DNA of 20,125 nt from a bacterium. GTDB taxonomy: Bacteria > Krumholzibacteriota > Krumholzibacteriia > LZORAL124-64-63. The stretch is from the NCBI GenBank assembly GCA_031441465.1, contig JANOEP010000019.1, forward strand, positions 1-20,125, given 5' to 3'. Under the pieces are notes generated by a model. The model ran no database searches, was not told the DNA's origin, and saw nothing but the letters and a program-made list of their open reading frames with translations. The stretch's first letter is position 1. The number at the start of each line of letters is the position of its first letter. Positions 1-20,125 of this stretch are shown here, piece by piece. A program made the position numbers and the translations under genes.

Positions 1-248
1 ACGCTGTCGCGGTGCGCGCGGGACTTGTAGACGATGTACGCGAAGACCACGGTCTCGCCGGACTTGAGCTTCAGCTGGCGGGGGAAGGGCATGCAGAAGT
101 CCGCCTTCAGGTCGTCGCCGGCGCATTCCTTGTAGTCGAGCGCGCCGTACGAGCGCCAGATCTTGGAAGCCGCCTTGGCTATGCGGCGGTAGGCGGGAAG
201 ATTGCGTTTCGGCACCGGCAATACGAAGCCATCAACATATTTGGGCAT
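1..248 (-). CDS. DUF1428 (YbaA-like) family protein, runs off the left edge
   Basis: Not in the ORF track; translated by hand from ATG at 248: MPKYVDGFVLPVPKRNLPAYRRIAKAASKIWRSYGALDYKECAGDDLKADFCMPFPRQLKLKSGETVVFAYIVYKSRAHRDS. YVDGFV.PVP, GAL.Y.EC.GDD and ETVVF...Y.SR.HRD are DUF1428 signatures. GAGGA RBS upstream. Confidence 0.88.
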   Translation of the reverse strand, partial: MPKYVDGFVLPVPKRNLPAYRRIAKAASKIWRSYGALDYKECAGDDLKADFCMPFPRQLKLKSGETVVFAYIVYKSRAHRDS

Positions 249-297
249 GGGAATTTCCTCGGGTCGGTTGTTTTTGGGGTAGCGAAAATCCGGGCGG

Positions 298-838
298 TCA
301 GAACCGAATGGTGGCCGTCACGGGAAAATGGTCGCTGGGAAACGGCTTCGTCTCGTCGTAGTCGACGATGCCAGCTTGGGAAGCTGACACCGGCGGGCGG
401 ACGAGGATCCAGTCGATGCGTTCGCTCTCGTGGCGGGCGGGCTTGAAATCGTTGAAGGTGTTTAAGTCTTCATTCCCGCGCCGAGGTGCGAGCGTCCACG
501 TGTCGACGAGGCCGACCTCCTGCGTGAGGATGTCGTAGGCGCGGCTCTTGCCGGCGAGGCAGTTGAAATCGCCGACCACCACGAGCGGCACGGTCGGGTC
601 GAGCTTGGCTAGGCGGTCGCGGATGAGCGTGGCGGCTTTCTGCCGGGCCTCTTCCACCTGGTGGTCGAAGTGGGTGTTCCAGAAATAAAATTCGCGGCCC
701 GTGGTCCGCTCGCGCAGGCGCACCCACGTCACCATACGGCGGAACTTGTTGCCCCAGGTCATCGAGCCGACGACCTCGGGCGTGTCGGAGAGCCAGAAAT
801 GGTCGAAGGCCACCGGCTCGAACCGGTCGCGGCGGAAA
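298..838 (-). pseudogene. Endonuclease/exonuclease/phosphatase (EEP) family protein, C-terminal part only (5' end missing at the junction)
   Basis: C-terminal ~179 aa of ORF 298..1149 carry FWLSDTP, NTHFDH, GDFN, RIDWI and PSDHFPV motifs. The upstream part of that ORF is the antisense of the permease gene. The N-terminal EEP motifs (TxN, QE) are absent. Confidence 0.85.
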
Positions 839-1276
<438 letters not shown>

Positions 1277-1328
1277 GGAGTGCGGACCGGCCCCCCGCGA
1301 CAAGGCCCTGGTGCAAGGAACGGAAGCG

Positions 1329-3705: not shown

Positions 3706-4568
3706 CACACGCCCCCGCGCAAGCTGAAGTTGTGGAAGCTCGGGACGAAGTGGTGGATCGCGCCCATCGCCAGCACCACCGCGAAGTAGGTCACGATGGC
3801 CAGCATGTTCATGCGGCGGCCGCGCCAGCCCCACCAGCGGTGGCCGGCCAGACCCACCAGGTAGACCAGGAAGATCACCCAGGAGGTCAGGATCTTGGGA
3901 TCGAAGGGGGTCAGGCTGCGCGCCGTTTCGGGGTCGAGCTTGTCGGCCAGGTCGTAAAGCCATAGGTGGCCCAGCGCCAGGGCTCCGAACAGCAGCGGCA
4001 CGCCCAGCTTGGCCGCGCCCACGCTCATGCGCTCCAGGACCTCCAACGGCGGCAGCCGGCGGAAGAGCAGCCCGAAGGTCTTGCGGGCGAGCTGGCGCGC
4101 CAGCACCAGGTAGAGGACCGCGTAGAGGAAGCTGAGGCTCAGCGCCGTGTAGGCCAGCAGCACCAGCACGGCGTGGCCGGCGTAGCCGGGGTCCTCCAGC
4201 AGCGGGTTGGCCGCCGGTTCGGCGACGGAGAACGCGCTGGCGATGAACTGCAGCAGGAAGCCCACGCCGGTGACCAGGAACCCCGTCTCGCGCACGCGCA
4301 GCCGCCGCTCGACCACGGCGTAGATCAGCAGCAGGGACAAGGCCAGCAGCGACAGGAACTCCAGGGGCGAGGCCATCGGCAGGTGGTGGTGGACCCTGGC
4401 GTGCAGGACGGACGCCGCGAGGTGGGTCACGACGGTCGCCGCGAGCAGCCGGCGGGCCCAGTGGTGGGCGAACCTGCGGTTCTCGTAGAAGACCCACAGG
4501 TACGCCACGAAGAGCAGCAGGTACAGCAGCGGGAGCAGGACCTCGCTCACGGTCAGCGCGAGCCTCAT
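3705..4568 (-). CDS. CcsA/HemX-like cytochrome c assembly family membrane protein
   Basis: From ATG 4568 (ATGA overlap with the hemY stop, GGAGG upstream): about 8 hydrophobic segments, HLPM, H..L..LAY.A, LY....RQL..K, RLPPLEVLE, DPK, GWRGRR and C-terminal HNF. Directly upstream of hemA, as is common for this family. Confidence 0.85.
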   Translation of the reverse strand: MRLALTVSEVLLPLLYLLLFVAYLWVFYENRRFAHHWARRLLAATVVTHLAASVLHARVHHHLPMASPLEFLSLLALSLLLIYAVVERRLRVRETGFLVTGVGFLLQFIASAFSVAEPAANPLLEDPGYAGHAVLVLLAYTALSLSFLYAVLYLVLARQLARKTFGLLFRRLPPLEVLERMSVGAAKLGVPLLFGALALGHLWLYDLADKLDPETARSLTPFDPKILTSWVIFLVYLVGLAGHRWWGWRGRRMNMLAIVTYFAVVLAMGAIHHFVPSFHNFSLRGGV

Positions 4569-6031: not shown

Positions 6032-7112
6032 GCGTCGCCTCCGCGTGGAAGGGATCGCCGGCCAGGCGCGCCGCCAGCGAAGTGAGCCAGGTCTCGTCGA
6101 GGTTGAGCGCGGCGCCGCGGTCGAACTCCCGCACGCCCAGGCGCTCGGCCTCGCGCCGCAGTTCGAGGTCGAGTTCGTGCAGCGTCTCGATGTGCTCACA
6201 GGTGAAGCTGACCGGCTGCACCAGCAGGTGGCGGCAGCCGGCTTCGGCCAGGCGGCGCGTCTCGGCCGTGATCTCGGGACCGAGCCACTTGATGGGGCCG
6301 ACCTTGCTCTGGAAGGCCAGAAGGGGTGCGGGGCCGCCCGGCAGGCGGGCCAACCAGGCGGCGTGCCCGGCCGCGGCGAAGGCCGACCGCACGCGTTCGT
6401 GGACGGCGCTGACCGTGGCGCGGGTCTGGCTGAGATAGGGGTCGCCGCGTTTCACGAATCTCTCGGGCAGGGAGTGGGCCACGTAGATCAACGCGCAGGC
6501 CTGCGGGTCCACGCCCTCGCCGGCCCAGCGCAGCAGGCCGCGGCCGGCGTTGGCTGCCAGGGTCGCGATGAAGCCGTCGAGCAGGTGCCAAGCCTCGACC
6601 ACGTGGACCGCGGCGCCGGGGGCGAAACGGTCCAGCGACTCCTGTACGAAGGCCAGCGTGCTGCCGTTGGTGGCGTCGGAGTACTGGGGGTACATCGGCA
6701 GGACCAGGAACTGCTCCGCGCCGCGCTCACGCAACCCGCGCACGGCCTCGTCGGGGTAGGGGCGCCAGTAGCGCATGGCCGGCAGCGCGACCGTCGGGCG
6801 GCCGGCTGCGATCAGCAACTCGGCCAGCCGGTCGCCTTGGGCGCGGGTGGTCGGGACCTGCGGCGAGCCGCCGCCGTGGCCCATTTCGAGGTACCGCCGC
6901 CGCACGGCCGGCGCGCGCCGCCGCGCGATCAGGCTGCCCAGGACCGGGGAGAGGAAGCGCGGGATGGGGATGATCTGGGGATCCCGGAACAGGTTGCGCA
7001 GGAAGGGCTCCACGGCGTCGGGCCCGTCGGGACCGCCCATGCCGCAGAGGATCAGGCCCGTGGTCCGGGCCGGGTCGAGGCGGTCCTGCCGAAAGCGACG
7101 CGGTGCGGTCAT
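6024..7112 (-). CDS. hemH: Ferrochelatase
   Basis: ATG 7112 with GAGG upstream. Motifs MGGP, PFLRNLFRDP.II, GGGSP, MRYWRP, LPMYPQYS, AHSLP, GDPY, FQSKVGP.KWLGP, F..EHIETLHELD. Confidence 0.95.
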   Translation of the reverse strand: MTAPRRFRQDRLDPARTTGLILCGMGGPDGPDAVEPFLRNLFRDPQIIPIPRFLSPVLGSLIARRRAPAVRRRYLEMGHGGGSPQVPTTRAQGDRLAELLIAAGRPTVALPAMRYWRPYPDEAVRGLRERGAEQFLVLPMYPQYSDATNGSTLAFVQESLDRFAPGAAVHVVEAWHLLDGFIATLAANAGRGLLRWAGEGVDPQACALIYVAHSLPERFVKRGDPYLSQTRATVSAVHERVRSAFAAAGHAAWLARLPGGPAPLLAFQSKVGPIKWLGPEITAETRRLAEAGCRHLLVQPVSFTCEHIETLHELDLELRREAERLGVREFDRGAALNLDETWLTSLAARLAGDPFHAEATRA

Positions 7113-7119
7113 CCTCGCC

Positions 7120-8496
7120 TCAGATGGTCTTGGAGAACAGGGGCGTCTCGCTCGTGCGGTCCAGGTAGGCGTCGAACTCCATGCACAGGTTGCGCACGAA
7201 GAAGCGCCCCAGCTCGGTGACGCGCACACGGTCGGGCAGGAACTCCACGAACCCCTCATCCTGATAAGGGCGCAGGCGGGCCAGCCCGTCGGCCAGCAGC
7301 GCGTCCGCGGGCGTGCCGAAGCCGGGCTCGGTCAGCGCGTACGGCAGTTCCAGGTTGCACATCAGGTTGAGGATCGCCAGGCGCCGCAGGCGGTCGTCGT
7401 CGCTGAGCCGGTGACCCTTGACGATCGGCAGGCGTCCGGCGTCGATCGCGGTCTGGTAGCCGTCGAGTTCGGCGTCGTTCTGGACGAAGCGGTCGCACAC
7501 GTCGCCGATGCCGCTCATGCCGAAGGCCAGCATGTGGGGCGCCGGCCGCGTCGTGTAGCCCATGAAGTTGCGGTGCAGGCGCCGCTCCCGCAGCGCGACC
7601 GCGAGTTCGTCGTCGCGGCGGGCGAAGTGGTCGATGCCGATCCAGTCGTAGCCGGCCTCGGCGAACAGGTCGATGGCCAGGCGGAACAGCTCGAACTTCT
7701 CGAAGCCGGACGGCATGTTGTCGGTGTTGATGAGCTTCTGCTGGGGCTTGACCCAGGGCACGTGGGCGTAGCTGAAGCAGGCCACGCGGTCGGGCCCCTG
7801 CTCGATGATGTCGTGCAGGGTGCGCTCGAAGGACGTGCGCGTCTGCTCCGGCAGGCCGTAGACGAGGTCGAGGTTGACGCCCTCGTAACCGGCCTCGCGG
7901 CAGGCCCGGTACAGCTCCAGCGTGCGGTCGCGCTTCTGCAGCCGGCCGATGGCCTTCTGCACCGCGGGCTCGAAGTCCTGCACGCCCAGGCTGATGCGGT
8001 TGAAGCCCTGCGCGCGCAGGAAGCGCGCCTGTTCGGGCGTGCCGATGCGCGGGTCGACCTCGATCGAGATCTCGCCCCGCGGGTCGACGGCGAAGGCGGC
8101 GCGCAGCAGGCGCAAGGCGCGCTCGACCTGCGGGTCCTTGAGGAAGTTGGGCGTGCCGCCGCCCCAGTGCAGCTGCACGACGCGCCGGCCGGGGCCCAGC
8201 ACGTCCACCACCGCCGCCAGCTCGCGCTCGACGCGGTCGAGGTAGGCGTCGACCGCGCCCTTCTCGCTGGAGACCACGGCGTTGCAGCCGCAGTAGTGGC
8301 AGTGCTTCGCGCAGAAGGGCAGGTGCAGGTAGACCGACAGCTCGTCGTCGGGACGCGACGAGAGTTCGCGCAGCGCCTCGCGGTAGTCGGTCTCGCCGAA
8401 GTCGCGCGTCCAGGCCGGCACTGTCGGGTAGCTCGTGTACCGCGGTCCCGGCTTGTCGTGCTTCTGGAGCAGTTCGCGCGGCACGTCCAGCGCCAT
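7120..8496 (-). CDS. hemN: Oxygen-independent coproporphyrinogen III oxidase (radical SAM)
   Basis: N-terminal GPRYTSYPT (true HemN rather than HemW), YLHLPFCAKHCHYCGC (CxxxCxxC), HWGGGTP, GFNRISLGVQDF, DLVYGLPEQ, IGIDHFA, RNFMGYTT, FSKTI end. Confidence 0.96.
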   Translation of the reverse strand: MALDVPRELLQKHDKPGPRYTSYPTVPAWTRDFGETDYREALRELSSRPDDELSVYLHLPFCAKHCHYCGCNAVVSSEKGAVDAYLDRVERELAAVVDVLGPGRRVVQLHWGGGTPNFLKDPQVERALRLLRAAFAVDPRGEISIEVDPRIGTPEQARFLRAQGFNRISLGVQDFEPAVQKAIGRLQKRDRTLELYRACREAGYEGVNLDLVYGLPEQTRTSFERTLHDIIEQGPDRVACFSYAHVPWVKPQQKLINTDNMPSGFEKFELFRLAIDLFAEAGYDWIGIDHFARRDDELAVALRERRLHRNFMGYTTRPAPHMLAFGMSGIGDVCDRFVQNDAELDGYQTAIDAGRLPIVKGHRLSDDDRLRRLAILNLMCNLELPYALTEPGFGTPADALLADGLARLRPYQDEGFVEFLPDRVRVTELGRFFVRNLCMEFDAYLDRTSETPLFSKTI

Positions 8497-8497
8497 G

Positions 8498-9535
8498 TCA
8501 GTCCCCCTCGCGGTACGCCTGCACGGTCGCGACCAGGGTCTCGACCGCGGCGATCGGCGCTTCGGGCAGGATGCCGTGCCCGAGGTTGAACACGTGGCCG
8601 GCGGCCTCGCGGCCGGCGCGGCAGATCTCCAGCGCGCGGCGGCGGATCTCCTCGTGGCTGCCGAACAGGCACAGCGGATCGAGGTTGCCCTGGACCGCCT
8701 TGCCGGGATAGGTGCGCGCGGCGACTGCCAGGTCGAGCGTCCAGTCCACGCCGAACGCCTCGGCGTCGAGCGTGCGGACATGGTCGAGGTAGGGGGCGCT
8801 GCCCTTGAGGAAGTAGACCCGGGGCACGCCGGCGTCCTTCAAGCCCGCGAGGATGCGCCGCAGGCCCGGCATGATGATCGCGGCGTAGTCCTGGGGGTGC
8901 AGGATGCCGCCCCAGGTGTCGAAGATCTGGACCGCGTCGACGCCCGCTTCGACCTGCATCAGCAGGTAGTCGGTGATCTGGTCGGCGAGCTTGTCCAGCA
9001 GGCGCGCCAGCAGCGCCGGATCGGAATAGAGCATCGCCTTGAGGTGCCGGTAATCCTTCGAGCCCCCGCCCTCGATCATGTACGCCGCCAACGTGAACGG
9101 CGCGCCGGCGAACCCGATCAGGGGCGTGTGGCCGCCGAGTTCGCGCTTGATCAGGCGCACGGCCTCGGCCACGTAGCCGGTGTGCTCGCGCGAGTCGACG
9201 ACGCAGAGGGCGTCCACGTCGGCGGCCGTGCGGACGGGATCGTGCATCCGCGGGCCGTGGTCGTCGAAGGAGAAGGGGGCGCCCATGGGCTCCAGCGGCA
9301 CCAGGATGTCGCTGAACAGGATGGCCGCGTCGAAGCCGAAGCGACGGATCGGCTGCAGGGTGACCTCGCAGGCCAATTCGGGGGTCTTGCACAGCCCGAT
9401 GAACGAGGTCTTCTCACGCACCGCGCGGTACTCGGGCAGGTAGCGGCCCGCCTGACGCATGATCCAGATGGGCGTGCGCTCGGGAGCCTCGCCCCGCAGG
9501 GCGGCTAGGTAGGGGCTGGTCTGAAGAGAGGCCAT
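8498..9535 (-). CDS. hemE: Uroporphyrinogen decarboxylase
   Basis: PIWIMRQAGRYLPEYR, DAAILFSDIL, LIGFAGAPFTLAAYMIEG, QIFDTW, QGNLDP, HVFNLGHGI; GGAG RBS. Confidence 0.97.
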   Translation of the reverse strand: MASLQTSPYLAALRGEAPERTPIWIMRQAGRYLPEYRAVREKTSFIGLCKTPELACEVTLQPIRRFGFDAAILFSDILVPLEPMGAPFSFDDHGPRMHDPVRTAADVDALCVVDSREHTGYVAEAVRLIKRELGGHTPLIGFAGAPFTLAAYMIEGGGSKDYRHLKAMLYSDPALLARLLDKLADQITDYLLMQVEAGVDAVQIFDTWGGILHPQDYAAIIMPGLRRILAGLKDAGVPRVYFLKGSAPYLDHVRTLDAEAFGVDWTLDLAVAARTYPGKAVQGNLDPLCLFGSHEEIRRRALEICRAGREAAGHVFNLGHGILPEAPIAAVETLVATVQAYREGD

Positions 9536-9606
9536 GTCGTCTCCGGGATAGGGTCGCCGGTGCGGAGCAGCACCGCGACGCGGGCGACCGCCACGCGCTG
9601 GGAGGA

Positions 9607-9650
9607 AATCTAGTCGCGGTTCCGGCGCATTGTGTCACAAATACGTCACA
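9607..9650 (-). promoter_or_regulatory. Putative promoter/operator of the hem operon: -10-like TAGATT plus TGTGAC direct repeat
   Basis: The minus strand reads TGTGACgtattTGTGACacaatgcgccggaaccgcgacTAGATT. The repeats are 11 bp apart and lie in a short AT-richer patch upstream of hemE. Confidence 0.4.
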
Positions 9651-9684
9651 TTGGGGGTTTTAAAGGGTCTGGGGGGCGCCGTCC

Positions 9685-9722
9685 AAGAAACGGGCCCCGC
9701 ACCGTCCTGGTGCGGGGCCCGT
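9685..9722 (-). terminator. Rho-independent terminator downstream of the omcS-like gene
   Basis: Perfect 14-bp stem ACGGGCCCCGCACC (9690-9703) / GGTGCGGGGCCCGT (9709-9722) with a 5-nt loop, followed on the minus strand by TTTCTT; 45 bp after the stop at 9768. Confidence 0.85.
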
Positions 9723-9767
9723 CGGATTGTCGCAAATCACCCGGCCCGGGCCGGGCTGGTCAACGGA

Positions 9768-10889
9768 TCAGTGCACTTCGTAGTGCGCGTCGCCGAAGTC
9801 CTTCACATGGCACTTGTTGCACAGCGAACGCTGGTTGGTCACCAGGGTGTAGCCGTAGTCCTTGTTCGCCACGTCATCCGCCGAGGCGCCGGTATCGGTG
9901 ATCAGCGGGTGCGAGCTGATCAGGTGCGTGGACGTGAAGTCCCAGCGGCCGGCGTCCGCGAAGGGCGACGCGTGCGAGCGATGGCAGGTCAGGCACATGA
10001 CCTGGTCCTGGGGCAGGGGGCCCTGGGTGTAGTTCAGGGGGTTGACGGTCTCGAGGTCGACGTTGACGACTTCGAAGGGCACCAGGCCGCGGTACGAGGT
10101 GGCGGGGTCGCCGCCGGTGGTCTGGTCGGTGGTGATGTAGGCGTTGTAGGTCGCCGCCACCAGGCTGCCCATGTCCTCGCCGGTCGCGTGCACGAAGTCC
10201 GAGGTGTTGCCCGAGTGGAGGTCCGTGTGGCAGTTGGCGCACCACTCGCTCATGCCCGACTTGTAGACGGTGTGCGAGAGGTCGGTCTCGGGCACGCCCG
10301 AGGGGCTGTTGCCCAGCGTGCGGCGGCTGTTGCCGACGGCCAGCGGAGCGGGGCTGTCGAAGCCGTAGCGGGCGCCGCCGTAGATGGGGCCGGTGCCCTC
10401 GTCGCCGTACAGCAGGCGGTAGTTCTCGTTGCCGTGGGGATCGTGGCAGCTGGTGCAGGTCAGGTACTGGCTGTCGAAGTCGCCGCCGGGGGCCGCGGCC
10501 AGCATGGGATCCCGGACGATGCCGTAGGCCGGCGAAACGACGTTATGGCCGTGCGTGTAGCCCTGCCGGGAGCCGGCGCGGGGGAGGGTCCACGAGAAGG
10601 TCTTGGTGAGCCAGTAGAAGTCGCCACCGGCGCCCCAGCCGAAGCCGCCGGCGAACTGGCCGTAGGCCGCGTGGCACTTCAGGCAGGTGTCGCTGGCGTT
10701 GCCGTTGTTCAGCAGGTAGGCGTTGCCCGCGGGATGATTGACATCCACGGGGTTGCCGTTCTGGCTGTTGTGCATCGTGTGGCAGCCGGCGCAGTAGGCC
10801 ACGCCGCCGTCGTGGAACGCCAGGGCGGCGCCGCTGCTCAGGGCGAGAGCCAGGACGATGGTTGCGGTGATCAACAGTTTGTTCTTCAC
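9768..10889 (-). CDS. omcS: OmcS-family hexaheme outer-surface cytochrome c (candidate nanowire subunit)
   Basis: GTG start with GGAGG RBS; 24-aa Sec signal ending ALA; six CxxCH motifs (CAGCH, CLKCH, CTSCH, CANCH, CLTCH, CNKCH). The blocks FHDGGVAYCAGCHTMHNS, GGDFYWLTKTFSW, GHNVV, APGG, CHDPHG, YRLL, GMSEWCANCHTDLH, PFE, CHRSHAS and QRSLCNKCHVKD are colinear with Geobacter OmcS as I recall it. Confidence 0.9.
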   Translation of the reverse strand: MKNKLLITATIVLALALSSGAALAFHDGGVAYCAGCHTMHNSQNGNPVDVNHPAGNAYLLNNGNASDTCLKCHAAYGQFAGGFGWGAGGDFYWLTKTFSWTLPRAGSRQGYTHGHNVVSPAYGIVRDPMLAAAPGGDFDSQYLTCTSCHDPHGNENYRLLYGDEGTGPIYGGARYGFDSPAPLAVGNSRRTLGNSPSGVPETDLSHTVYKSGMSEWCANCHTDLHSGNTSDFVHATGEDMGSLVAATYNAYITTDQTTGGDPATSYRGLVPFEVVNVDLETVNPLNYTQGPLPQDQVMCLTCHRSHASPFADAGRWDFTSTHLISSHPLITDTGASADDVANKDYGYTLVTNQRSLCNKCHVKDFGDAHYEVH

Positions 10890-11067: not shown

Positions 11068-11991
11068 CTACTCTCCTGCTTCCGTGCCGAAGATCCCGAA
11101 CGTCTGGACGCGCCCTTCGTAGCCCTGGGCCACGAACACGCGCCCGGACGTCGCGGCGATGGCGAGGGGGTGGTAGAGCTGCCCCGGCGCACCGCCGAAC
11201 GAACCGAACTCTGACGAGAAGTTGTGGTCACGGTCGTAGACCAGGACCGTGTGCCGCATGCGGTCCAGGACCAGGACCTCGCCCGCGGGCCCGAAGGCGA
11301 TGCCGACCGGGAAGGCGAGGCGGCCCGGGCTGGTGCCGGGGCGGCCGAAGGAACCGGCGTCCGCACCGTCCGCCGTGCGGATCAGCACCAGGTGCAACTC
11401 GCCGCCGGGGATGTAGAGGCGGCCGTCGGGCGCTTCGGCGGGACGGCCGAGTTCCGACTGCTCGCTGACGCCCTCGAGGGCGCGGTGCCAGAGCACGCGG
11501 CCCGTCGCGGCGTCGTGCTTGGTGAGCGTGCCGGCGTATTTGTCGAGTGAGACGTAATTGCCGTCGGCGGTGACGATCAGGTGGTCCGGCTGCCACTGCG
11601 GCGCGGGCCGCTCGACGTCGAAGCGCACCGGCTCGCCGCGCAGGTCGAGCTTGCGCAGGGTGCGCGCGCCGTCGGCGTCACGGTCCGCGAAGACGAAGCC
11701 GCCGTCGAGCTCGAGGCTGCCGTCGACGGGGGTCGAGAGGGCGGCCGCGATGCTGCTGGTGAACAGGGTGATCCCGTTCCCGTCGACGACGTGGAATTTC
11801 ACGCCCCGCTCGTCGGTGACGCACACGTCGCCGGTCGCGGGATCGAGGCTCAGGGCGACGGGACGAACCTGGCCGGCCGCACCCATATCGATCTGCAGCG
11901 TGCTTTCATAGCGAAAAGCGATCGTTCCCTTTGCCGCGAGCGGGCAAACGGTCAGCAGGGCGGCGATGCAGATTGCGCGGCTGCTTGTCAC
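11068..11991 (-). CDS. Secreted NHL-repeat beta-propeller protein
   Basis: Repeats such as FGRPGTSPGRLAFPVGIAFGPAGEVLVLD and FGSFGGAPGQLYHPLAIAATSGRVFVAQ. A signal-peptide-like N-terminus follows GTG 11991; the alternative start is ATG 12066. Confidence 0.85.
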   Translation of the reverse strand: MTSSRAICIAALLTVCPLAAKGTIAFRYESTLQIDMGAAGQVRPVALSLDPATGDVCVTDERGVKFHVVDGNGITLFTSSIAAALSTPVDGSLELDGGFVFADRDADGARTLRKLDLRGEPVRFDVERPAPQWQPDHLIVTADGNYVSLDKYAGTLTKHDAATGRVLWHRALEGVSEQSELGRPAEAPDGRLYIPGGELHLVLIRTADGADAGSFGRPGTSPGRLAFPVGIAFGPAGEVLVLDRMRHTVLVYDRDHNFSSEFGSFGGAPGQLYHPLAIAATSGRVFVAQGYEGRVQTFGIFGTEAGE

Positions 11992-12092
11992 GGGGGTGTC
12001 ACCGAATCTGTTGGTGTATTCACAGCGAAGTTGTTTCGAAGTCACTCGCGACGCTGTTGTTGTCATTCATTGTGAGCTCTTGTCACGGAGAT

Positions 12093-12122
12093 ATCATAGC
12101 GCTTCTGTTACTATTCCGTCAA
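12093..12122 (-). promoter_or_regulatory. Sigma70-type promoter for the NHL-omcS unit
   Basis: Minus strand TTGACG (12122-12117), 18-bp spacer, TATGAT (12098-12093); each hexamer matches consensus at 5/6, with an AT-rich tract upstream. Confidence 0.6.
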
Positions 12123-12206
12123 ATGCATTTTGAAGTAAACGCTCTCATATTGCGAAAAATCTTTATTTTTGACAATAGTCGCCAATATCCACTATTTCGG
12201 TCGTGT

Positions 12207-12240
12207 AAAGCAGACCGGCCCCCTGATGGGAGCCGGCCTG
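12207..12240 (-). terminator. Probable terminator hairpin after the 42-heme cytochrome gene
   Basis: Minus strand CAGGCCGGCTCCC-ATCA-GGGGGCCGGTCTG-CTTT forms a 13-bp stem whose two mismatches are G-U pairs only on the minus strand. The U-tract is short. Confidence 0.6.
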
Positions 12241-12280
12241 TTAAAATACGCACTAGTTTGGCGAGATCAATTCACAGCCA

Positions 12281-15200
12281 TCAGCGCTTCTGGCGGATCT
12301 TTTCGGTATGGCATCCGATGCACAGCTTCCCGCCGGCGTCCTCCCGGAGCACCTTCTCGAACTCCGACCCATGGGGATCGTGGCAGCTCGCGCAGACAAT
12401 CTCGCCGCCACGGACCGGGTCGGTCGTCCCGGCGCCCAGCGGGTGGTCGGTGTGCTCCTGCCAGGAGTGGCAACGCAGGCACGGGTCGGGACCGGCGGGG
12501 ACCGCACCGGCCGCCGCCGGGCTGAGGTGGGGGTTGTGGCACATCGTGCACTGACGGCCCTCGGGATCGGGGTGACGGTGGCTGGAGGACTTCATCCGCG
12601 CCGCCTGCTCGGCGTGACAGCGGCCGCAGACGGCGGCTTGGCTGCGCGGCAGCAGATCGGGCACCGGAGAGGCGTGGGGCGTGTGGCACTCCAGGCAAGC
12701 CCGCTCTCCCGAGAGGGGCGCGTGGAGGGTCGCACCCTTGAGTTCCTCGGCCAGGCCGGGATGGCAGGACAGGCAGAGGCGTTGCTCCGCACCCGCCTGC
12801 ACCTTGCCGCTCGCGTCGTGGCAGGCCTTGCAGTCCCGCTTGGCGTACGGCGGATGGACGTGGCCGTGTGTCAGGCCCGCCTGCGTGGAGGCGTGCGGGT
12901 CGTGGCAGGCCATGCAATCGGCCGACTCGAGGTCGAAGCCCAGGTGCGGCCGGGTCAGCGCCGAACTCTTCAGGTCGTGGCAGGTTGCGCAGAGGGCGGG
13001 CACCTCCCTGGTCAGGAGGTTCGCCTGAGTCGTGCCGTGCGCGTCGTGGCAGGTGGCGCAACTCCCGTCGGCGAACGGCATGTGTTGCCGGGGAAGCGAC
13101 CGCGCCTCCTGCAGGTCCTGGTGGCAGGCCCAACAAGATTTCGCCCGTTCGGTGCGCAGCAGCGCGGGCTGGTCCGACCCGTGCGGGTCGTGGCACGCGG
13201 AGCATTCGCCGTCGCGAGCCGGCCGGTGGGCCAGATCCGCCCGCGGGAACAGGTCGCTGCTCTCGTGGCACGCGGCGCAGGCGGCGCCGACGCCGCCGGC
13301 TTTCAGCAGGTGATCGCCGCGGGCTGCGTGGGCGTCGTGGCAGGCGCTGCAGTCGCCGGCGTCGAAGGGGGCGTGAGGGTGCCGGCGCGCTTCCGTGAGC
13401 CCGTCGTGGCAGCCGGCGCACAGCGCCTTCTGGTCGGCGATGGGTGCGGGGCCATCGTGGCAGGACGCGCAGTCGCGGTCGTCGAAGGGCGGGTGCGAAT
13501 TCGGCCGGATCAGCGCTGTCTGTGTGGAGTGGTGCGGCGCGTGGCAGCCCGTGCAGTCCAGCCCGGCGAGTTCACGCCCGAGGTGGGCGCTCTTCAGGGC
13601 GACGTCGCTCTCGTCGTGGCAACGGAAGCAGAGTTCGGCGGCCGGCGCCGTCAGCAACGCCGGCTGTGCGCCGCCGTGGGGCAGATGGCATGTCGTGCAG
13701 TCGTCCATGATCGGCGGATGGACCGACTTCGCCGCCGCGACGTCGACGACGTCCTCGTGGCAGACGGTGCAGAGCAGCGGCTCCGGCGCGGCCAGCAGAT
13801 CGGCACGGTCCGCGCGGTGGGCGTCGTGGCACGCGGTGCAGTTGCCGGCGGCGACCGGCGCGTGCGCGTGGCCGACGGCGCCCTGGCCTGTGTCGTGGCA
13901 GTCCAGGCAGATCGCCGTCGCCGGTCGTCGCAGCATGGCGGCCTCGTCGCCGCCGTGGGGCCGATGGCAATCCCCGCAGAGGCCGTCTGCGACGGGCGGG
14001 TGCAGGCTGCCCCCCTCGGGTTTGACCGCCTGATCGGCGTGGCAAGCCAGGCAGGTTGCCGCGGGCGAGGCCTTCAGCAGGGAAGGCTGGTCGGCGCGGT
14101 GCGGCGTGTGGCAGGCGAGGCAGTCGCCGCGCGCGGCCACATCGTGGGGGTGGGAGGTGACGAGTTCGACCTTGACCTTGAGGTGGCATCCGAGGCAGAG
14201 GGTCCCCGCCTTGGCGGTCAACAGTCCCGGCTCGGTCGAGCTGTGCGGGTCATGGCAGGCGGAGCAGTCCCGCTTGACGAAGGGCGCGTGGTCCGAGACG
14301 GCGGCGACGGACACGTCGCCGACTTCCTGGTGGCAACCCAGGCACAGCTCGCCGGGAGGCGCGGTCAGCAACGCGGCCCGCGCGCCGCCGTGGGCGTCGT
14401 GGCAGGCGTTGCATTCGCCGCCGGCGACCGGCGCATGCACCAGGTTCTTGCGGAACGGTGCGTCGTCGTGGCATTCGAAGCAGAGCCGGCGCAGCTCGGT
14501 CTTGATCATCCCGGCGTGTGAGCTGCCGTGGGCGGCGTGGCAGTCCAGGCAGGAGCCGTCGGCGACGGGTGCGTGAGGCGTCGCGGCGCCGACGCCGGGC
14601 TGGTCGTGGCAGGACAGGCACAGGTCGTTGCCCTGGGCGACCAGCGCGGTGACGCCCCCGGCGTCCTGCACGTGGCAGGCGGCGCAGTCGCGGTCCTTGA
14701 CGGGCGCGTGCTGCACGGCCAACAGGAGCTTCGGCGCGTCGGCGCTGTGGGGATCGTGGCAGGACGTGCAGCCGGTGATCGCGGCCGCGTCGCCGTGCGC
14801 CTGTGCGAGCTTGCGGGCGTCGCGGTGGCAGGACAGGCAGAGCGCGTCGACCGTCGTGTCGAGCAGGTGCGCTTCGGCGCTGCCGTGGGGCCGGTGGCAG
14901 GCGGCGCACCCCTCCTTCTTCAACGGGGCGTGGACGAACGCACGCGTGAAGGCGGCGCCGTCGTGGCAGGTCAGGCAGGCCGCGCCGCCCTTCGCCGGCA
15001 ACAGGCCGGGCTGGCCGCTGCCGTGGGGGTCGTGGCAGGCGATGCAGCCGCCGTCGCGCACCGGCGCGTGGACGTGCGCCAGCTCGGATTCGGCGATCTG
15101 GGGCGCGTGGCAGCCCGCGCACAGCTCGATGCCCGACTCCTTCAGGGCCAGCCGCCCCACGACGCCGTGGGGCTCGTGGCAGGCTTCGCACTCCGCCTTG

Positions 15201-15382
15201 GCGAAGGGGGCGTGCGCGTGGGGGGCGCCGACGGCCTTCTTCTGGTCGGCGTGGCAGTCCAGGCAGGTCTTGGTGCGGAAGGGTCCCGCCGCCAGGGCGG
15301 CCCCGGGGAACAGGATCGCCGTCAGCAGGGACGCCAGCAGCAGGACCGGAACGAGTCCGGCGGACACAGCACGCTTACTCAT
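12281..15382 (-). CDS. Giant multiheme cytochrome c, 42 CxxCH motifs (paired-CXXCH repeat family)
   Basis: 1033 aa with a Sec signal ending ALA. Hand count gives 42 CxxCH motifs in a repeating H-x-P...CxxCHxxH...LL...CxxCH unit. No lipobox or C-terminal membrane anchor. Start overlaps the upstream stop, with GGAG RBS. Confidence 0.95.
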   Translation of the reverse strand: MSKRAVSAGLVPVLLLASLLTAILFPGAALAAGPFRTKTCLDCHADQKKAVGAPHAHAPFAKAECEACHEPHGVVGRLALKESGIELCAGCHAPQIAESELAHVHAPVRDGGCIACHDPHGSGQPGLLPAKGGAACLTCHDGAAFTRAFVHAPLKKEGCAACHRPHGSAEAHLLDTTVDALCLSCHRDARKLAQAHGDAAAITGCTSCHDPHSADAPKLLLAVQHAPVKDRDCAACHVQDAGGVTALVAQGNDLCLSCHDQPGVGAATPHAPVADGSCLDCHAAHGSSHAGMIKTELRRLCFECHDDAPFRKNLVHAPVAGGECNACHDAHGGARAALLTAPPGELCLGCHQEVGDVSVAAVSDHAPFVKRDCSACHDPHSSTEPGLLTAKAGTLCLGCHLKVKVELVTSHPHDVAARGDCLACHTPHRADQPSLLKASPAATCLACHADQAVKPEGGSLHPPVADGLCGDCHRPHGGDEAAMLRRPATAICLDCHDTGQGAVGHAHAPVAAGNCTACHDAHRADRADLLAAPEPLLCTVCHEDVVDVAAAKSVHPPIMDDCTTCHLPHGGAQPALLTAPAAELCFRCHDESDVALKSAHLGRELAGLDCTGCHAPHHSTQTALIRPNSHPPFDDRDCASCHDGPAPIADQKALCAGCHDGLTEARRHPHAPFDAGDCSACHDAHAARGDHLLKAGGVGAACAACHESSDLFPRADLAHRPARDGECSACHDPHGSDQPALLRTERAKSCWACHQDLQEARSLPRQHMPFADGSCATCHDAHGTTQANLLTREVPALCATCHDLKSSALTRPHLGFDLESADCMACHDPHASTQAGLTHGHVHPPYAKRDCKACHDASGKVQAGAEQRLCLSCHPGLAEELKGATLHAPLSGERACLECHTPHASPVPDLLPRSQAAVCGRCHAEQAARMKSSSHRHPDPEGRQCTMCHNPHLSPAAAGAVPAGPDPCLRCHSWQEHTDHPLGAGTTDPVRGGEIVCASCHDPHGSEFEKVLREDAGGKLCIGCHTEKIRQKR

Positions 15383-16691
15383 GGCTCTCCTTCGCGGTCT
15401 GCTGCGCCAGCCGTTCGCGGATGACGGCTTCGGCGCCGGGGACGATCCTGACGGTCGTGGCGGCCTCGAGGCGGGCGATCGCGTTGGCGATGTTCTCCCG
15501 CGTGCGTTGGGCCCTCATCCGCAGCAGCAGGTCTTCGCGGCAGTCCGCGAGCGGCCGCGGCGTGGGTTGCTCGACCTCGGTCACGACGGCGACCACCCAG
15601 CCGCCGGGCACTTCGTAGGGATCCAGGATCTGGCCGGCCCGGGCCTCGCCCGGCTTCAGGCCGAGCATCTCCGGCTGGAGCCAGGTCGTGGGCAGGGCGG
15701 CGGCGTCCTGGCGGACCTCGGCCGTGCGCTTAGCCAGCCAGGTCATCTCGGCGCCCTGGTCCAGGCGCTTCTTAAAGGTGTCCGCGGCTTCCTTTTTCTC
15801 AAGCAGCACGCTCTGCACTTTCAGGCGGGTCGGCGGCGTCAGGTGCGACAGGTTCGCTTTGTAGAACGCGGCGATCTCGGCCTCGGTCGGCGTGAAGCGG
15901 AATCTGCCCAGGGAGTTGACCATCTCCTCGAGCACGAGGTCCCGTTCCTGCTGGGCCGCGAGGCGTTTGACCGCGCTCCGCTTGGGGTAGCCGAGCCGCC
16001 CGGACTCGTAGCCGAGCAGGGCCTCGCTGAACCACTTCTGGAAAAACTCGTCGCGGATCTGCGGGGCGTCGGGTTTGTTGGCGAGCCCGTGGAAGTGCTC
16101 GAAGCGCATGTTGCTGGTGAGCGCGCTGACGCGCAGGGCGCCCGACGGCAGTTTCGCGAGCACCGCGTCGCTCTCCTTCAGCTGCTTCTTCACCGCGGGG
16201 TCGGTCGACGCGTAGTCGAGGGAGGCGAGCAGCGTCTCGTCCACCCGGATGCCGTATTTCGACTTCAGGTCTTCGAGGTAGGCGGCGATGGCCTCTTCGC
16301 GGGCCTGCGCCGGGTCGGCGATGACCAGCGGCGCGGTGCCGGCGATCGAGTCCAGCAGGGCGATGATGCTGCGCGAGCGGATGGTCTCGCGCACCTGGGC
16401 CGCGATCATGTCCTTGCGGTGAAGGCCCGTGCGGTACCCCTCCTGGATGATCAACTCGTTCTGGACCAGGCGCCGCAGCACGGCCGCGGGCTCGGGCATC
16501 TGCTGCTCCTGGCTCTTGTTCATCTGCAGCGTGACGAAGAGTTCCATGTCGAGGTCGGCGACGGAGATCGTGTCGCGACCCACGAACGCGAGGGGGGTGT
16601 TCTCTGACGGGACCGCGGCCACGGTCGCGCTCGCGACCAGGAGCGCGACGACGGTGAGCGCGAGGCGGGCGTGGGAACGGGCGAATTTCAT
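15375..16691 (-). CDS. SurA/PrsA-like periplasmic chaperone with parvulin (PpiC)-type domain
   Basis: Signal peptide; LAFVGRDTISVADL and VLRRLVQNELIIQEG (SurA-N-like); PTEAEIAAFYKAN; VQSVLLEKKEAA...RLDQGAEMTWLAK; LKPGE...PYEVPGGWVV. Confidence 0.8.
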   Translation of the reverse strand: MKFARSHARLALTVVALLVASATVAAVPSENTPLAFVGRDTISVADLDMELFVTLQMNKSQEQQMPEPAAVLRRLVQNELIIQEGYRTGLHRKDMIAAQVRETIRSRSIIALLDSIAGTAPLVIADPAQAREEAIAAYLEDLKSKYGIRVDETLLASLDYASTDPAVKKQLKESDAVLAKLPSGALRVSALTSNMRFEHFHGLANKPDAPQIRDEFFQKWFSEALLGYESGRLGYPKRSAVKRLAAQQERDLVLEEMVNSLGRFRFTPTEAEIAAFYKANLSHLTPPTRLKVQSVLLEKKEAADTFKKRLDQGAEMTWLAKRTAEVRQDAAALPTTWLQPEMLGLKPGEARAGQILDPYEVPGGWVVAVVTEVEQPTPRPLADCREDLLLRMRAQRTRENIANAIARLEAATTVRIVPGAEAVIRERLAQQTAKESHE

Positions 16692-16692
16692 G

Positions 16693-17766
16693 TCAACGTA
16701 CCTTCCCCGGCTGCCGGGATTCCTCCCACAGCCTGTGCATGGACGCGGCGAGCAACCGCCGCGGCGAACTCGATCCCGTGTTGCCGAACCAGCCCCGCAC
16801 GGGGCGGTTGTCCTGATCGATGTCGAAAGCGGCGGCCACCAACCCCGTGCGGGTGTCGACCGTGCGCAGGTGCAGCGAGAACGAGGACAGCGTCTCCCAG
16901 GGAACCGCGGACGCCGACGCGCCTTCTTCGGCCGCGGACGGGGCGGCCTGGTCCGGTTCGCGGGTGATCATTTCCAGCACGATCGCCTCGGGCGCGCCGA
17001 ACGTCTCGGCCAGGAGCGCCAGCCCGGATCGATCGAGCCGGCGCGGGTCGGCGCCTCCGGCCACCAGGGCGCCGCCCAGCACGGCCGGGTCCAGGACCGC
17101 GCACGCCGAGTCGGCCAGCGCGGCTTCGAGCAGGCACTGGGTCGCGATCTGGGCGGTCGCGGCGTCGAACCCCAGGGGATGGACCGCCAGCGGCGCGAGG
17201 GGCGCCCCCGACCGCGGCCGGTTCGTCGCGGCGAGCGTGGCGACGAGCCGGCGGCAGGCGATCGCGAAGTCGATCCGCCAGGCGGCGCCGCCCAGGGCGC
17301 ACGCTTCGGTGGCCGCCGACCCGATCAGGCCGGTGCCGGCGTCGAGGGTGCGGCCGGCCAGTTCGATGCGGTCGCGCCCGAGGTACAGGTGGACGAGCAG
17401 CAGGCGGTCCGCGCCCGCGCTGTCGAGATCGGCGAGGAAGGCCGGCGGGAGGAGCCGGCCGTCGCGGATCCGCCGGTGGCGCTGCAGGGCCAGCGACGAC
17501 GCGGCCGGCAGGGGCGCGCCGCCGTGGCGCGCGAGCGCGCCGGTCAGCTCCTGTTCGCCGAGCGCGCGCAGGTCGGCCAGGTCCGTCACGCCGCTGCCGT
17601 TGCCGGCGCCGGCCATGAACAGCAGGATGCAGGTGCGGCCGGTCGGGTCGGGTGCGGCGCGCTGCGCGGCGGCGGGGGTCGCACCCAGCAGGGACGACAG
17701 CAGCGCCAGGACCGCCGCGGCGTGCCTGAAGTGGGCGACCATGGGGCTGCCGGACGTCGCTCGCAT
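16693..17766 (-). CDS. Exported protein with two CsgG/TolB-N-like alpha/beta domains
   Basis: ATG 17766 overlaps the upstream stop (TGATG); alternative ATG 17742. Signal peptide ending AAA. Two copies of the strand motif (IELAGRTLDAGTGLI and FSLHLRTVDTRTGLV), each preceded by a GAD/GAP helix-strand element. Confidence 0.65.
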   Translation of the reverse strand: MRATSGSPMVAHFRHAAAVLALLSSLLGATPAAAQRAAPDPTGRTCILLFMAGAGNGSGVTDLADLRALGEQELTGALARHGGAPLPAASSLALQRHRRIRDGRLLPPAFLADLDSAGADRLLLVHLYLGRDRIELAGRTLDAGTGLIGSAATEACALGGAAWRIDFAIACRRLVATLAATNRPRSGAPLAPLAVHPLGFDAATAQIATQCLLEAALADSACAVLDPAVLGGALVAGGADPRRLDRSGLALLAETFGAPEAIVLEMITREPDQAAPSAAEEGASASAVPWETLSSFSLHLRTVDTRTGLVAAAFDIDQDNRPVRGWFGNTGSSSPRRLLAASMHRLWEESRQPGKVR

Positions 17767-18335
17767 CAGAACAGGGACTCCAGCGCGTCGCGCACCGCCC
17801 GGCGCGACACCTCGTGTTGGCTCGCCGAGTCGCCGCCGAAGAGCTTGCGCCAGAACGACGAGCCGTCGCGCGAGACCTGGGCGTTCCAGACCATGGTGCC
17901 GGTCTCGGTCTCCAGCATGGAGAACGACGCGGTCAGCGCGCAGGTCTGATCGCCGCCGCTGCGCCGCTGCCCGTAGTCCTCCACCGTGCCGGTGAAGATC
18001 GCCTGGGCGCCGAGCGCCTCGCCGAGCGTGACGACCTGTTCCGGCGTCAGGGGCGTGTCGGACCCCAGGCCGAGCCGGTTGCAGGCCGCCAGCGTCGCGC
18101 CCGGGTCGACGATGTCCAGCGCCTCGGTCTGCAGCAGTTCGGCCAGGAACACCGGCTGCAGCCGCGCCGCCGCGAAGCGGTCGGCGCTGAGATTGTGGAA
18201 CGGGACCACCGCGCAGCTCTTGACGAAGCTGAGATCCACGTCGGGATGGATGAAGTGCGTGGTCTGGGGCGCGCACCCGGCCAGCAGGGCCAGCCCGAGC
18301 GCGAGCGCGATCCGGATTTCCCGTCGATATGCCAT
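17766..18335 (-). CDS. CsgG/PelC/DUF799-like lipoprotein
   Basis: ATG 18335 with GGAGA RBS (alternative 18353); lipobox LAGC; AVVPFHNLS, LGEALGAQAIFTGTVEDY, MLETETGTMVW and amphipathic FWRKLFG. Confidence 0.8.
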   Translation of the reverse strand: MAYRREIRIALALGLALLAGCAPQTTHFIHPDVDLSFVKSCAVVPFHNLSADRFAAARLQPVFLAELLQTEALDIVDPGATLAACNRLGLGSDTPLTPEQVVTLGEALGAQAIFTGTVEDYGQRRSGGDQTCALTASFSMLETETGTMVWNAQVSRDGSSFWRKLFGGDSASQHEVSRRAVRDALESLF

Positions 18336-18373: not shown

Positions 18374-20125
18374 TCAGAAGCTCCAGTGGACCCTGAAGCT
18401 GGTGTTGAAGGGCGAGTTCCGTTCGCCGTCGCGTTCGTATTCCTGGACCTCGAGTCCGCCTTCGAGCGTGAGGCGGGGGCGCGCGCGGCAGACCGCCTGC
18501 ACGGAGGCACCCTGCTGGTGGGTGTCGGTGCGCGTGTCGTGCTGGTCGCTGAGCGAGAACTGCAGGCTGACGCTGCCGCCGGGCAGCGGGGTCCAGGTCA
18601 GGTAGTGGCGCAGCATCCAGTCGTCCCTGAGGCGCTGCTCGTAGCGGGCGAGACTGTTCAGCGACAGCAGGGGCCGGATCTGCCAGCCGAGGTCGAGTTG
18701 CGTGTCGTTGAAGGGCGTGAATCCCGCGCCCGCGACCGTGCTCACCCAGCGGTTGACGCGGCGCAGGTTCAGGCTGAGTTGCGGCTTCGGGGCGCAGGTG
18801 ACGGTCGTGGAGACGGTCCATGACCGGGAGTCCTGGGTCGAAGCGTAGTCGTCGAGGCGCGCGTGGCTGACTTGCTGTTGCAGGCGGAACGCCGGGGCCG
18901 GCTGCCAGGCGACGTCCAGCGACACGTTTTCGGTGACCTTGTCGAGGTCGCGGCTGTGATCCACCAGGCGCGACCAGCCCAGCCGGCTCCAGAGGCGCTC
19001 GCGCTCGCGGCGGGTCAGCGAGAGGGTGGTGCCCGTCACGTCGGTGCTGCTGCGCGACGGGCTCTCCAGCTTGTCGACGTGGTAGGAACCGCTGGCCGTC
19101 CACAGGCCGCGGCGCCAGGTCGCGCCCAGGCGGTGGTCGGCGCCGCTGAGATCGCGCGCCGCATCGTCGAAGCGGCGCTCTTCGAAGCTGGCGTCGTAAG
19201 TCAGCGTGAGATCGCGGCGCGCGTCGTATTCCAGGTTGCCGATCAGCTGGTACCGCGAGACATCGCTCTCGGACGTCGCGCTGGATCCTGGCCCCTCGAT
19301 CTCGAGTTCGGTCAGGGCGATCACCGCTTCGGTGGGGCCGGTCTTGATGTCGACCAGCTTCAGGCGGCGCGCGGCGATCCCCGACGGGAACTCGATGAGC
19401 CAGCCCTGACGCCCGTTGCCCCAGTCCTGGTAGGCGGCGCGCGCGGCGCCGGGCGCCAACTCGGTCCAGGCGACGCCCTCGGGGTCGTCGTTGACGAAGA
19501 CGCGCCACTGCAGGAAAGCGGGGAAGCGCACGATGTCCGCGATGTAGAGAACGGCCTGGGTCATCTCCGTCGTCTCGCCGAAGTCCACCACGAGGTTGCG
19601 GTAGTCGCCGCCGTACTCGCGCACGACGGCCTGTTCGTCGCCGAGGTCCAGGCCCGCCGGCTGGTCGCGGTCCAGGTCGGCCAGGGCCGGCAGCGGCGTC
19701 GGTGCGGGTTCGAGGGGGTCGAGGCTCTCGGGAGTCCCATCCAAGACGTAGCCGATGGACAGCGGCACCAGCAGCGAGCGCCGGTCGCCGCCGAGATCGA
19801 TGGTCTGGTGCAGGAATCGGCTGCGGGCTTCCAGAGCGTAGCGGACCCGGTTGCCGTCCAGACGGCCCGACTTCCGGTACTGCGAGCTGTGACTGGTGAA
19901 GAGCCGCTTGGTGCCGCTGCTCACCGATCTCGTGTCGCTGCGGGTAAAACCGTAGCGCAGATCCCCGTAGCGTTGCCAAGAACGCTGGATGCCGGCGCTC
20001 AGCATCCGGTCGCGGTTCTCGGTTTCCGTCGGGGGCGTTTCGCGCCGCCAGGAGGCGGTGTCGCTGTAGCGCAGGTACCAGTCCCCCCAAGCGGGTACGC
20101 CGCGCACATTGGCGCCCCAGTCCAG
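18374..20125 (-). CDS. Outer-membrane beta-barrel protein with an inserted discoidin/F5-8-type-like domain, 5' end beyond the window
   Basis: The frame is open to the window edge (LDWGANVRGVPAW...). Many alternating amphipathic strands rich in W/Y/S/T/R. The C-terminus FRVHWSF ends in an aromatic residue like a BAM beta-signal. Confidence 0.78.
   Translation of the reverse strand: MDWGANVRGVPAWGDWYLRYSDTASWRRETPPTETENRDRMLSAGIQRSWQRYGDLRYGFTRSDTRSVSSGTKRLFTSHSSQYRKSGRLDGNRVRYALEARSRFLHQTIDLGGDRRSLLVPLSIGYVLDGTPESLDPLEPAPTPLPALADLDRDQPAGLDLGDEQAVVREYGGDYRNLVVDFGETTEMTQAVLYIADIVRFPAFLQWRVFVNDDPEGVAWTELAPGAARAAYQDWGNGRQGWLIEFPSGIAARRLKLVDIKTGPTEAVIALTELEIEGPGSSATSESDVSRYQLIGNLEYDARRDLTLTYDASFEERRFDDAARDLSGADHRLGATWRRGLWTASGSYHVDKLESPSRSSTDVTGTTLSLTRRERERLWSRLGWSRLVDHSRDLDKVTENVSLDVAWQPAPAFRLQQQVSHARLDDYASTQDSRSWTVSTTVTCAPKPQLSLNLRRVNRWVSTVAGAGFTPFNDTQLDLGWQIRPLLSLNSLARYEQRLRDDWMLRHYLTWTPLPGGSVSLQFSLSDQHDTRTDTHQQGASVQAVCRARPRLTLEGGLEVQEYERDGERNSPFNTSFRVHWSF

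Follow-up and report, generated by a model that had tools for sequence, protein, structure and literature searches.

An OmcS-family hexaheme cytochrome beside an osc-like helper cluster in a Krumholzibacteria-like bacterium

An OmcS-family cytochrome and its helper genes

We analyzed the entire contig C19 (JANOEP010000019.1; 20,125 nt, hereafter the window), one of 74 in a 3.49-Mb genome with a completeness of 96.8%, focusing on a gene for an OmcS-family hexaheme c-type cytochrome on its minus strand (9768..10889). The gene starts with GTG, has GGAGG 7 nt upstream, keeps a G+C content (GC) at third codon positions (GC3) of 0.90-1.00 over its full length and encodes a 373-aa precursor. A typical Sec signal peptide (residues 1-24, ending in SGAALA) is followed by a 349-aa mature protein starting FHDGGVAYCAGCHTMH, and the six CxxCH motifs of the protein begin at C33, C69, C145, C217, C299 and C357 (precursor numbering, here and below). 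Six extra histidines are found at H26 (H2 of the mature protein), H40 (H16), H115 (in GHN), H152 (DPH), H234 (FVH) and H306 (RSH). An earlier reading of the letters alone (the sequence-only reading) had named this N-terminus, the six motifs and these six histidines, and all of them are present in the open reading frame (ORF).

Pfam and NCBIfam detect generic multiheme domains only in the cytochrome (Paired_CXXCH_1, with weak DmsE, NrfH and MtrC matches below cut-offs). Such matches would suit a periplasmic electron carrier or enzyme subunit whose likeness to OmcS goes no further than a shared multiheme scaffold. We regard this alternative as highly improbable, because the protein matches OmcS, and OmcS alone, from end to end in both sequence and fold. 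Using phmmer against PDB chain sequences, OmcS (6ef8/6nef) is the sole distinct match at E <=10, with an E-value of 2.9e-42; the alignment consists of two stretches that jointly span query residues 25-364 and OmcS residues 1-407, and it pairs the six CxxCH motifs of the window cytochrome with the six of OmcS. The AlphaFold2 (AF2) model, a prediction without hemes that was made from a 118-sequence alignment, has a mean predicted local distance difference test score (pLDDT) of 91.9 and a predicted template modeling score (pTM) of 0.88. When this model is searched against the PDB with Foldseek, 6ef8_A is the sole significant match (E 7.4e-23, TM 0.78/0.72) and the next match has an E-value of 3.1. 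VIA-align superposes 325 of the 349 mature residues on OmcS (Z 33.1, root-mean-square deviation 2.2 Å), placing model residues 25..364 on OmcS 1..407, i.e., model residue 25 on OmcS residue 1; the next-best match, OmcE, has a Z of 4.3. The gene is also linked to genes for an outer-membrane barrel and lipoproteins, and Pfam annotation of the window genes places neither a catalytic domain nor a partner enzyme gene next to it. Judged from its sequence and its model, the window cytochrome is a true full-length member of the OmcS family, as the sequence-only reading had proposed.

Upstream of the cytochrome gene lies a cluster of helper genes, which we compared with profiles seeded from the genes of a Geobacter sp. 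AOG1 locus (L043) and iterated over 78 related loci. GC3 phase and translations place all genes of the cluster, as well as the hem genes downstream, on the minus strand. The Osc positions given here refer to the Geobacter osc operon and are taken up in the last section. Gene A (18374..20125; OscE position) encodes a large outer-membrane beta-barrel protein ending in FRVHWSF; it is cut by the contig end, with ~200 N-terminal residues lost, and the profile from the L043 barrel matches it at 8e-44 over profile positions 204-759 of 762. Gene B (17766..18335; OscF position) encodes an LpoB/GNA1162-like lipoprotein with the lipobox LLAGC (Pfam LpoB, 1.1e-05), which is related to the L043 ORF 16358-16969 both by blastp (32% identity, 1.7e-33) and by an L043-seeded profile match (2.9e-65). 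Gene C (16693..17742, assigned by GC3 phase; OscG position) encodes a secreted protein of ~350 aa, the counterpart of the longer second lipoprotein. It has no Pfam or NCBIfam match, and hhalign aligns it to the 370-aa lipoprotein family of other loci with a probability of 99.5 (E 9.7e-23, 271 columns). Gene D (15375..16691; OscH position) encodes a secreted PPIC-type peptidyl-prolyl isomerase (PPIase; Pfam Rotamase_2, 3.4e-12) that the L043 PPIase profile matches at 1.1e-92, and it overlaps the start of gene E by 8 nt. From gene A to gene E, neighbors overlap or are separated by 38 nt at most.

Gene E (12281..15382; OscI/OscJ positions) encodes a 1033-aa cytochrome with 42 CxxCH motifs (Pfam Paired_CXXCH_1, 3e-215). 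Residues 10-644 of this protein align to 26-heme proteins and residues 649-1030 to 16-heme proteins, which at most related loci across phyla are encoded by separate adjacent genes (26-heme, ~660 aa; 16-heme, ~410 aa). The 16-heme part carries no signal peptide, and the junction lies near residue 645-650. By these alignments, the 42-heme cytochrome is a natural fusion of 26-heme and 16-heme cytochromes.

Gene F (11068..12066), located after the 42-heme gene and before the OmcS-like gene in the direction of transcription, encodes an NHL-repeat beta-propeller protein (Pfam NHL, 3.4e-09; L043 NHL-seeded profile, 3.5e-53). Because GC3 is low in its first ~60 codons, the true start of the NHL gene is probably downstream of 12066. 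The 214-nt gap between the 42-heme and NHL genes (12067-12280) is far poorer in GC (0.38-0.53 per codon phase), and its minus strand contains a sigma-70-like promoter match (12093..12122; TTGACG-18-TATGAT, 10/12), a match to a consensus from which the promoter type of the host phylum may differ. The promoter scan found 2 sites against 0.5 expected. The low-GC gap with its promoter match suggests that transcription of the NHL and OmcS-like genes is separate from that of the helper genes. At the other end of the pair, ~45 nt after the cytochrome stop codon, a terminator-like GC-rich hairpin followed by GUUUCUU is found on the minus strand (9682..9726). The fold of 9680-9775 has an energy of -54.1 kcal/mol (z -4.58), which 0/200 shuffles matched in stability; a simple consensus terminator scan did not list the hairpin at 9682-9726. 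Judging from the sequence, the hairpin probably ends the transcription unit ahead of the hem genes. Searching the window against Rfam gave no match at the gathering score of any family, and at that threshold no known riboswitch lies ahead of the cytochrome gene. RNA-library contigs (4 libraries from 4 studies) cover parts of the cytochrome gene at 85-99% likeness, and one 978-nt contig spans the NHL and OmcS-like genes. These contigs come from runs chosen with this gene and do not prove transcription; they give a weak hint that the cytochrome gene is expressed.

The barrel and lipoprotein set occurs once in the genome, in which 27 six-frame ORFs, a few of them mutually overlapping, contain at least four CxxCH motifs. 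The entire cluster is collinear in two other contigs, one from a same-genus metagenome-assembled genome (MAG; L016) and one, 1.6 Mb long, from a genome of the same family (L010), and in the same-family genome G014 the barrel gene is the first gene of the cluster.

Relatives, heme ligands and a proposed nanowire

The genome contains a second OmcS-family gene on another contig (G000:C11:111970-113052, plus strand; loci L002 and L091), which is 59% identical to the window copy. This paralog has the identical 16-residue N-terminus (again starting FHDGGVAYCAGCHTMH) and six motifs, is an orphan with no helper genes nearby, and has a lower GC (0.66) and GC3 (0.81) than the window copy. Two tandem OmcS-like genes, 70% and 55% identical to the query, are found in a genome of the same family (L089, ~9327-10382; G014:C7:17326-18381, minus strand), a pair that, by analogy, recalls omcS-omcT.

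A scan of one genome per GTDB species with the family alignment A1 yielded 222 stretches with relatives, and 78 loci were kept. By record title, these loci belong to Krumholzibacteriia, Eisenbacteria, Gemmatimonadota, Fibrobacteria, Zixiibacteriota, Ignavibacteria and Acidobacteriota, and also span Nitrospirota, Rokuibacteriota, Anaeromyxobacteraceae, Desulfuromonadales, Geobacter, Geomonas and others. At 50% identity the family forms 796 clusters with E <=0.001 and 113 with E <=1e-30. Helper genes were counted at the 38 loci with full 10-kb flanks: a lipoprotein is encoded at 26, a multiheme cytochrome at 24 and an NHL protein at 22, with all three jointly present at 19/38 and none of them at 10/38.

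Alignment A1, which comprises the window cytochrome, its paralog and 116 full-length six-motif relatives (118 members), was used to follow the heme ligands through the family. All six CxxCH motifs are invariant in 118/118 members. The extra histidines H115, H152, H234 and H306 are likewise His in 118/118, H26 (mature His2) in 116/118, and H40 (mature His16) in 110/118 (93%). In the phmmer alignment, the six extra histidines of the window cytochrome pair with histidines of OmcS, and mature residues 1-18 align with OmcS 1-18, so that H40 pairs with OmcS His16; this histidine is at the identical mature position, as claimed earlier. With 12 conserved histidines for 6 hemes, an all-bis-histidine ligand set is predicted. 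In OmcS, the inter-subunit ligand of heme 5 is reportedly His16, an assignment said to come from Wang et al. in 2019. The available text of Filman et al. 2019 (PMC6584659) describes all 12 axial ligands of OmcS as His, 11 of them from the same subunit and one, at heme 5, from the neighboring molecule. By phmmer numbering, OmcS His332 is the CxxCH histidine of motif 5 and pairs with H303 of the window cytochrome.

The sequence-only reading had also treated His16 as a mark of polymerization. The position is indeed kept, but since His16 is the family norm (110/118), its presence does not mark a polymerizing member. Eight of the 118 members have no His at the His16 column yet keep all six CxxCH motifs (P0136, P0139, P0146, P0194, P0212, P0228, P0233 and P0244); these could be natural non-polymerizing or differently ligated variants and, as such, useful contrasts.

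Combining the sequence, the model and the analogy to OmcS, we favor, at a probability of roughly 0.6 for the explanation as a whole, a Sec-exported six-heme OmcS-family cytochrome that polymerizes as a nanowire, with helper-aided export and a 42-heme feeder. Filament formation by the window cytochrome, taken as a separate claim, is plausible and slightly favored on sequence and analogy. The nanowire reading gains support because an osc-like helper cluster adjoins the cytochrome gene, and this gene context is stronger evidence for a wire than His16. In the proposed mechanism, the cytochrome would be exported by Sec and receive its hemes, with the neighboring prolyl isomerase aiding its folding, and would cross the outer membrane via the barrel and the two lipoprotein-type proteins encoded upstream. 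At the surface, subunits would polymerize head to tail like OmcS, with precursor His40 acting as the sixth ligand of heme 5 (C299-x-x-C302-H303) of the next subunit, and the resulting continuous heme chain would carry respiratory electrons, in one direction or the other, between the cell and minerals or partner cells. The 42-heme fused cytochrome would be the likely periplasmic electron feeder of the filament, and the NHL propeller a likely filament-handling factor.

Several observations weigh against this explanation. By phmmer, the OmcS-family entries in the searched PDB copy consist of G. sulfurreducens OmcS alone, and because OmcS is the sole family member there, we saw no structural precedent for filaments formed by any OmcS homolog. 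The window protein is 58 residues shorter than OmcS and ~30-38% identical to it, and its interface loops may differ from those of OmcS. His16, kept by 93% of A1 including orphan paralogs, does not separate wire-formers from other members. The 7-bladed propeller of the OscD position, whose profile has 38 matches in 37/78 related loci, was not found among the 8 window proteins or the 12,659 genome ORFs at E <=1e-3; with the genome 96.8% complete and the 5' end of the cluster off the contig, its absence is not proven, and the NHL propeller is present. A crude motif scan of the genome did not find an ORF for a small PpcA-type triheme cytochrome. Finally, the OscE-H names of the Geobacter sp. AOG1 genes are a positional interpolation from three anchors given in the available text of PMC13194489.

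Some of these points would suit a surface-located monomer or small oligomer that takes up electrons or serves as the terminal reductase for metals or humics; long filaments would be absent, and the helpers would be limited to folding and export. The shorter protein and a solved filament structure limited to G. sulfurreducens OmcS fit such a protein, the near-universal His16 (110/118) may serve other needs, and the 10/38 full-flank loci with orphan copies indicate that members of the family also occur apart from an assembly setting. We consider this alternative rather unlikely on the grounds of ligation and gene context. Among the 12 conserved histidines, the only sixth ligand for heme 5 is the His16 equivalent, and in the available text of PMC6584659 the heme 5 ligand of OmcS comes from a neighbor; a monomer would be left with a five-coordinate heme 5 or would need a large N-terminal rearrangement, whereas the N-terminal segment of the model superposes on filament OmcS from residue 1. 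The barrel, lipoprotein and PPIase set, moreover, is complete and collinear with the Geobacter-type companion genes. A homodimer prediction (two copies of residues 25-373, alignment A1, four hemes) scored 0.00 in both runs and gives no answer either way between the monomer and the nanowire that we favor.

Host lineage and the downstream hem genes

GC averages ~0.71 across the twenty 1-kb bins of the window (range 0.64-0.76), compared with ~61% for G. sulfurreducens. Among the 120 closest proteins listed for the cytochrome from a collection of 5.8 billion proteins, 7 carry source names: Krumholzibacteria, Krumholzibacteriia or Eisenbacteria MAGs at 62-67% identity, plus one labeled 'bacterium' at 93%. 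HemE, encoded 230 nt downstream of the cytochrome gene, has its best named matches in Candidatus Krumholzibacteria (77%) and Krumholzibacteriia (68-69%), and the few other named matches are labeled bacterium, Acidobacteria or Eisenbacteria. An ortholog of the cytochrome is present in 6/6 same-genus genomes, at 90-94% identity, and in 16/24 other genomes of the same family, whereas the Geobacter and Geomonas homologs are merely 31-33% identical. By these sequence relationships, the host is a Krumholzibacteria-like uncultured bacterium, not Geobacter. Both the ~70% GC that had been estimated by eye and the non-Geobacter host that had been claimed from it agree with these results.

The window is the whole of a 20-kb contig in a 74-contig assembly, and a mis-binned contig from a Geobacter-like organism would make the non-Geobacter host an artifact. 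Because of the orthologs in same-genus and same-family genomes and the Krumholzibacteria matches of HemE on the same contig, mis-binning is very unlikely. The GC of ~0.71 throughout, the collinear clusters in L016 and L010, and the low identity of the Geobacter and Geomonas homologs likewise oppose this explanation, which is effectively refuted.

Krumholzibacteriota is a candidate phylum of the FCB group, and we know of no cultured electroactive representative. The sequence-only reading had suggested that the host is possibly of a lineage not known to be electroactive. Its non-Geobacter part holds, but OmcS genes in a Krumholzibacteria MAG from an iron-fed reactor were published in 2021, according to the available text of PMC7914226.

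If the window protein polymerizes, long-range extracellular electron transfer by OmcS-type wires would extend to a phylum that is uncultured, associated with sediment and sludge, and distinct from the classical metal reducers, which would bear on what drives iron and humic cycling in sediment and sludge. With its helper genes compact and in single copy, and with 26 and 16 hemes naturally fused into one protein, the locus could help to resolve how such wires are fed and exported. Should the more specific proposal given with the osc comparison below hold, cytochrome nanowires together with their export machine would be an ancient portable module that works in very different cell envelopes, and the 42-heme fusion would suggest that the 26-heme and 16-heme partners dock directly with each other.

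Downstream of the cytochrome gene, a row of heme biosynthesis genes occupies 2368-9535 on the minus strand: hemE, a hemN-like radical SAM gene, ferrochelatase (hemH), a protoporphyrinogen-oxidase-like flavoprotein gene (hemY), a 265-aa ORF without assigned family (3705-4500) and hemA. A functional link between the cytochrome and the hem operon was considered and rejected, as HemE adjoins in 2/78 related loci and the terminator-like hairpin lies between the two. The adjacency of the hem genes looks lineage-specific. The hem genes are flanked by an ORF for a DCC1-like thiol-disulfide oxidoreductase (1107-1757, plus strand) and a gene for a DUF4126 membrane protein (1788-2348, minus strand).

Comparison with OmcS and the osc operon

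The window protein and OmcS (GSU2504, 6EF8/6NEF) share a signal peptide followed by F-H-x-G-G-V-A-x-C-x-G-C-H-T-M-H; in both, the six CxxCH motifs come in the same order and six additional histidines occupy corresponding positions. Their common fold begins at residue 1 and continues to the C-terminal CNKCH motif. Their gene surroundings are also alike, with an NHL-propeller gene adjacent and a barrel, lipoprotein, PPIase and multiheme-cytochrome set nearby. In contrast to these shared features, identity to OmcS is ~30% over all alignment columns and 38% over structurally aligned residues, and the mature window protein is shorter (349 vs 407 residues) through loop deletions. Unlike OmcS, it has a short C-terminal tail past the last motif, and its host is a Krumholzibacteria member with 71% GC rather than Geobacter.

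The available text of PMC13194489 places omcS, omcT and oscC in the osc (omcS-companion) operon, and proposes roles in OmcS folding (OscH), secretion (OscE, F and G) and morphology (OscD); it equates oscC with GSU2501, oscI with GSU2495 and oscJ with GSU2494. By position-based interpolation from these three anchors, window genes A-B-C-D-E would correspond to OscE-F-G-H-I/J. In Geobacter sp. AOG1, the OmcS homolog is followed by an NHL gene, a 514-aa 7-bladed propeller, a 775-aa barrel ending in LRLSF, a 203-aa GNA1162/LpoB/CsgG-like lipoprotein, a 370-aa lipoprotein, a 590-aa PPIase and a multiheme cytochrome. The window has the same internal order of barrel, short LpoB-like lipoprotein, longer lipoprotein-like protein, PPIase and multiheme cytochrome. 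The two arrangements differ in that the NHL and OmcS pair stands at the 3' end of the window cluster and at the 5' end of the Geobacter-type cluster, which amounts to a cyclic permutation. Also unlike osc-type clusters, the window has its 26-heme and 16-heme cytochromes joined in a single 42-heme protein, lacks a second OmcS-like gene in tandem (the paralog being on another contig without helpers), and has a cluster start that runs off the contig. A more specific proposal, that a member of the Krumholzibacteriota builds true OmcS-type conductive filaments via a permuted companion cluster and feeds them through a periplasm-spanning fused 42-heme cytochrome rather than PpcA-type carriers, is tentative, and we rate it somewhat below even odds.

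Shen et al. 2025 (Cell Chem Biol 32:239), as cited in PMC13194489 and PMC13712944, reportedly describes in its title an assembly machinery for OmcS that is widespread and ancient. The available text of Portela et al. 2024 (PMC10954620) describes homologs of OmcS in diverse bacteria. A wide distribution of the family and its companion genes has already been described, and OmcS genes in Krumholzibacteria are also already in print: in the available text of Dalcin Martins et al. 2021 (PMC7914226), FeGenie calls OmcS genes in a Krumholzibacteria MAG that was obtained by enrichment in an iron-fed reactor, and a role in iron cycling is proposed. The MAG and the window come from the same candidate phylum and share the same gene family call. 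As far as the available text of that paper goes, a marker gene and read abundance were reported for the MAG, whereas for the window the heme ligands, the fold and the helper cluster were analyzed.

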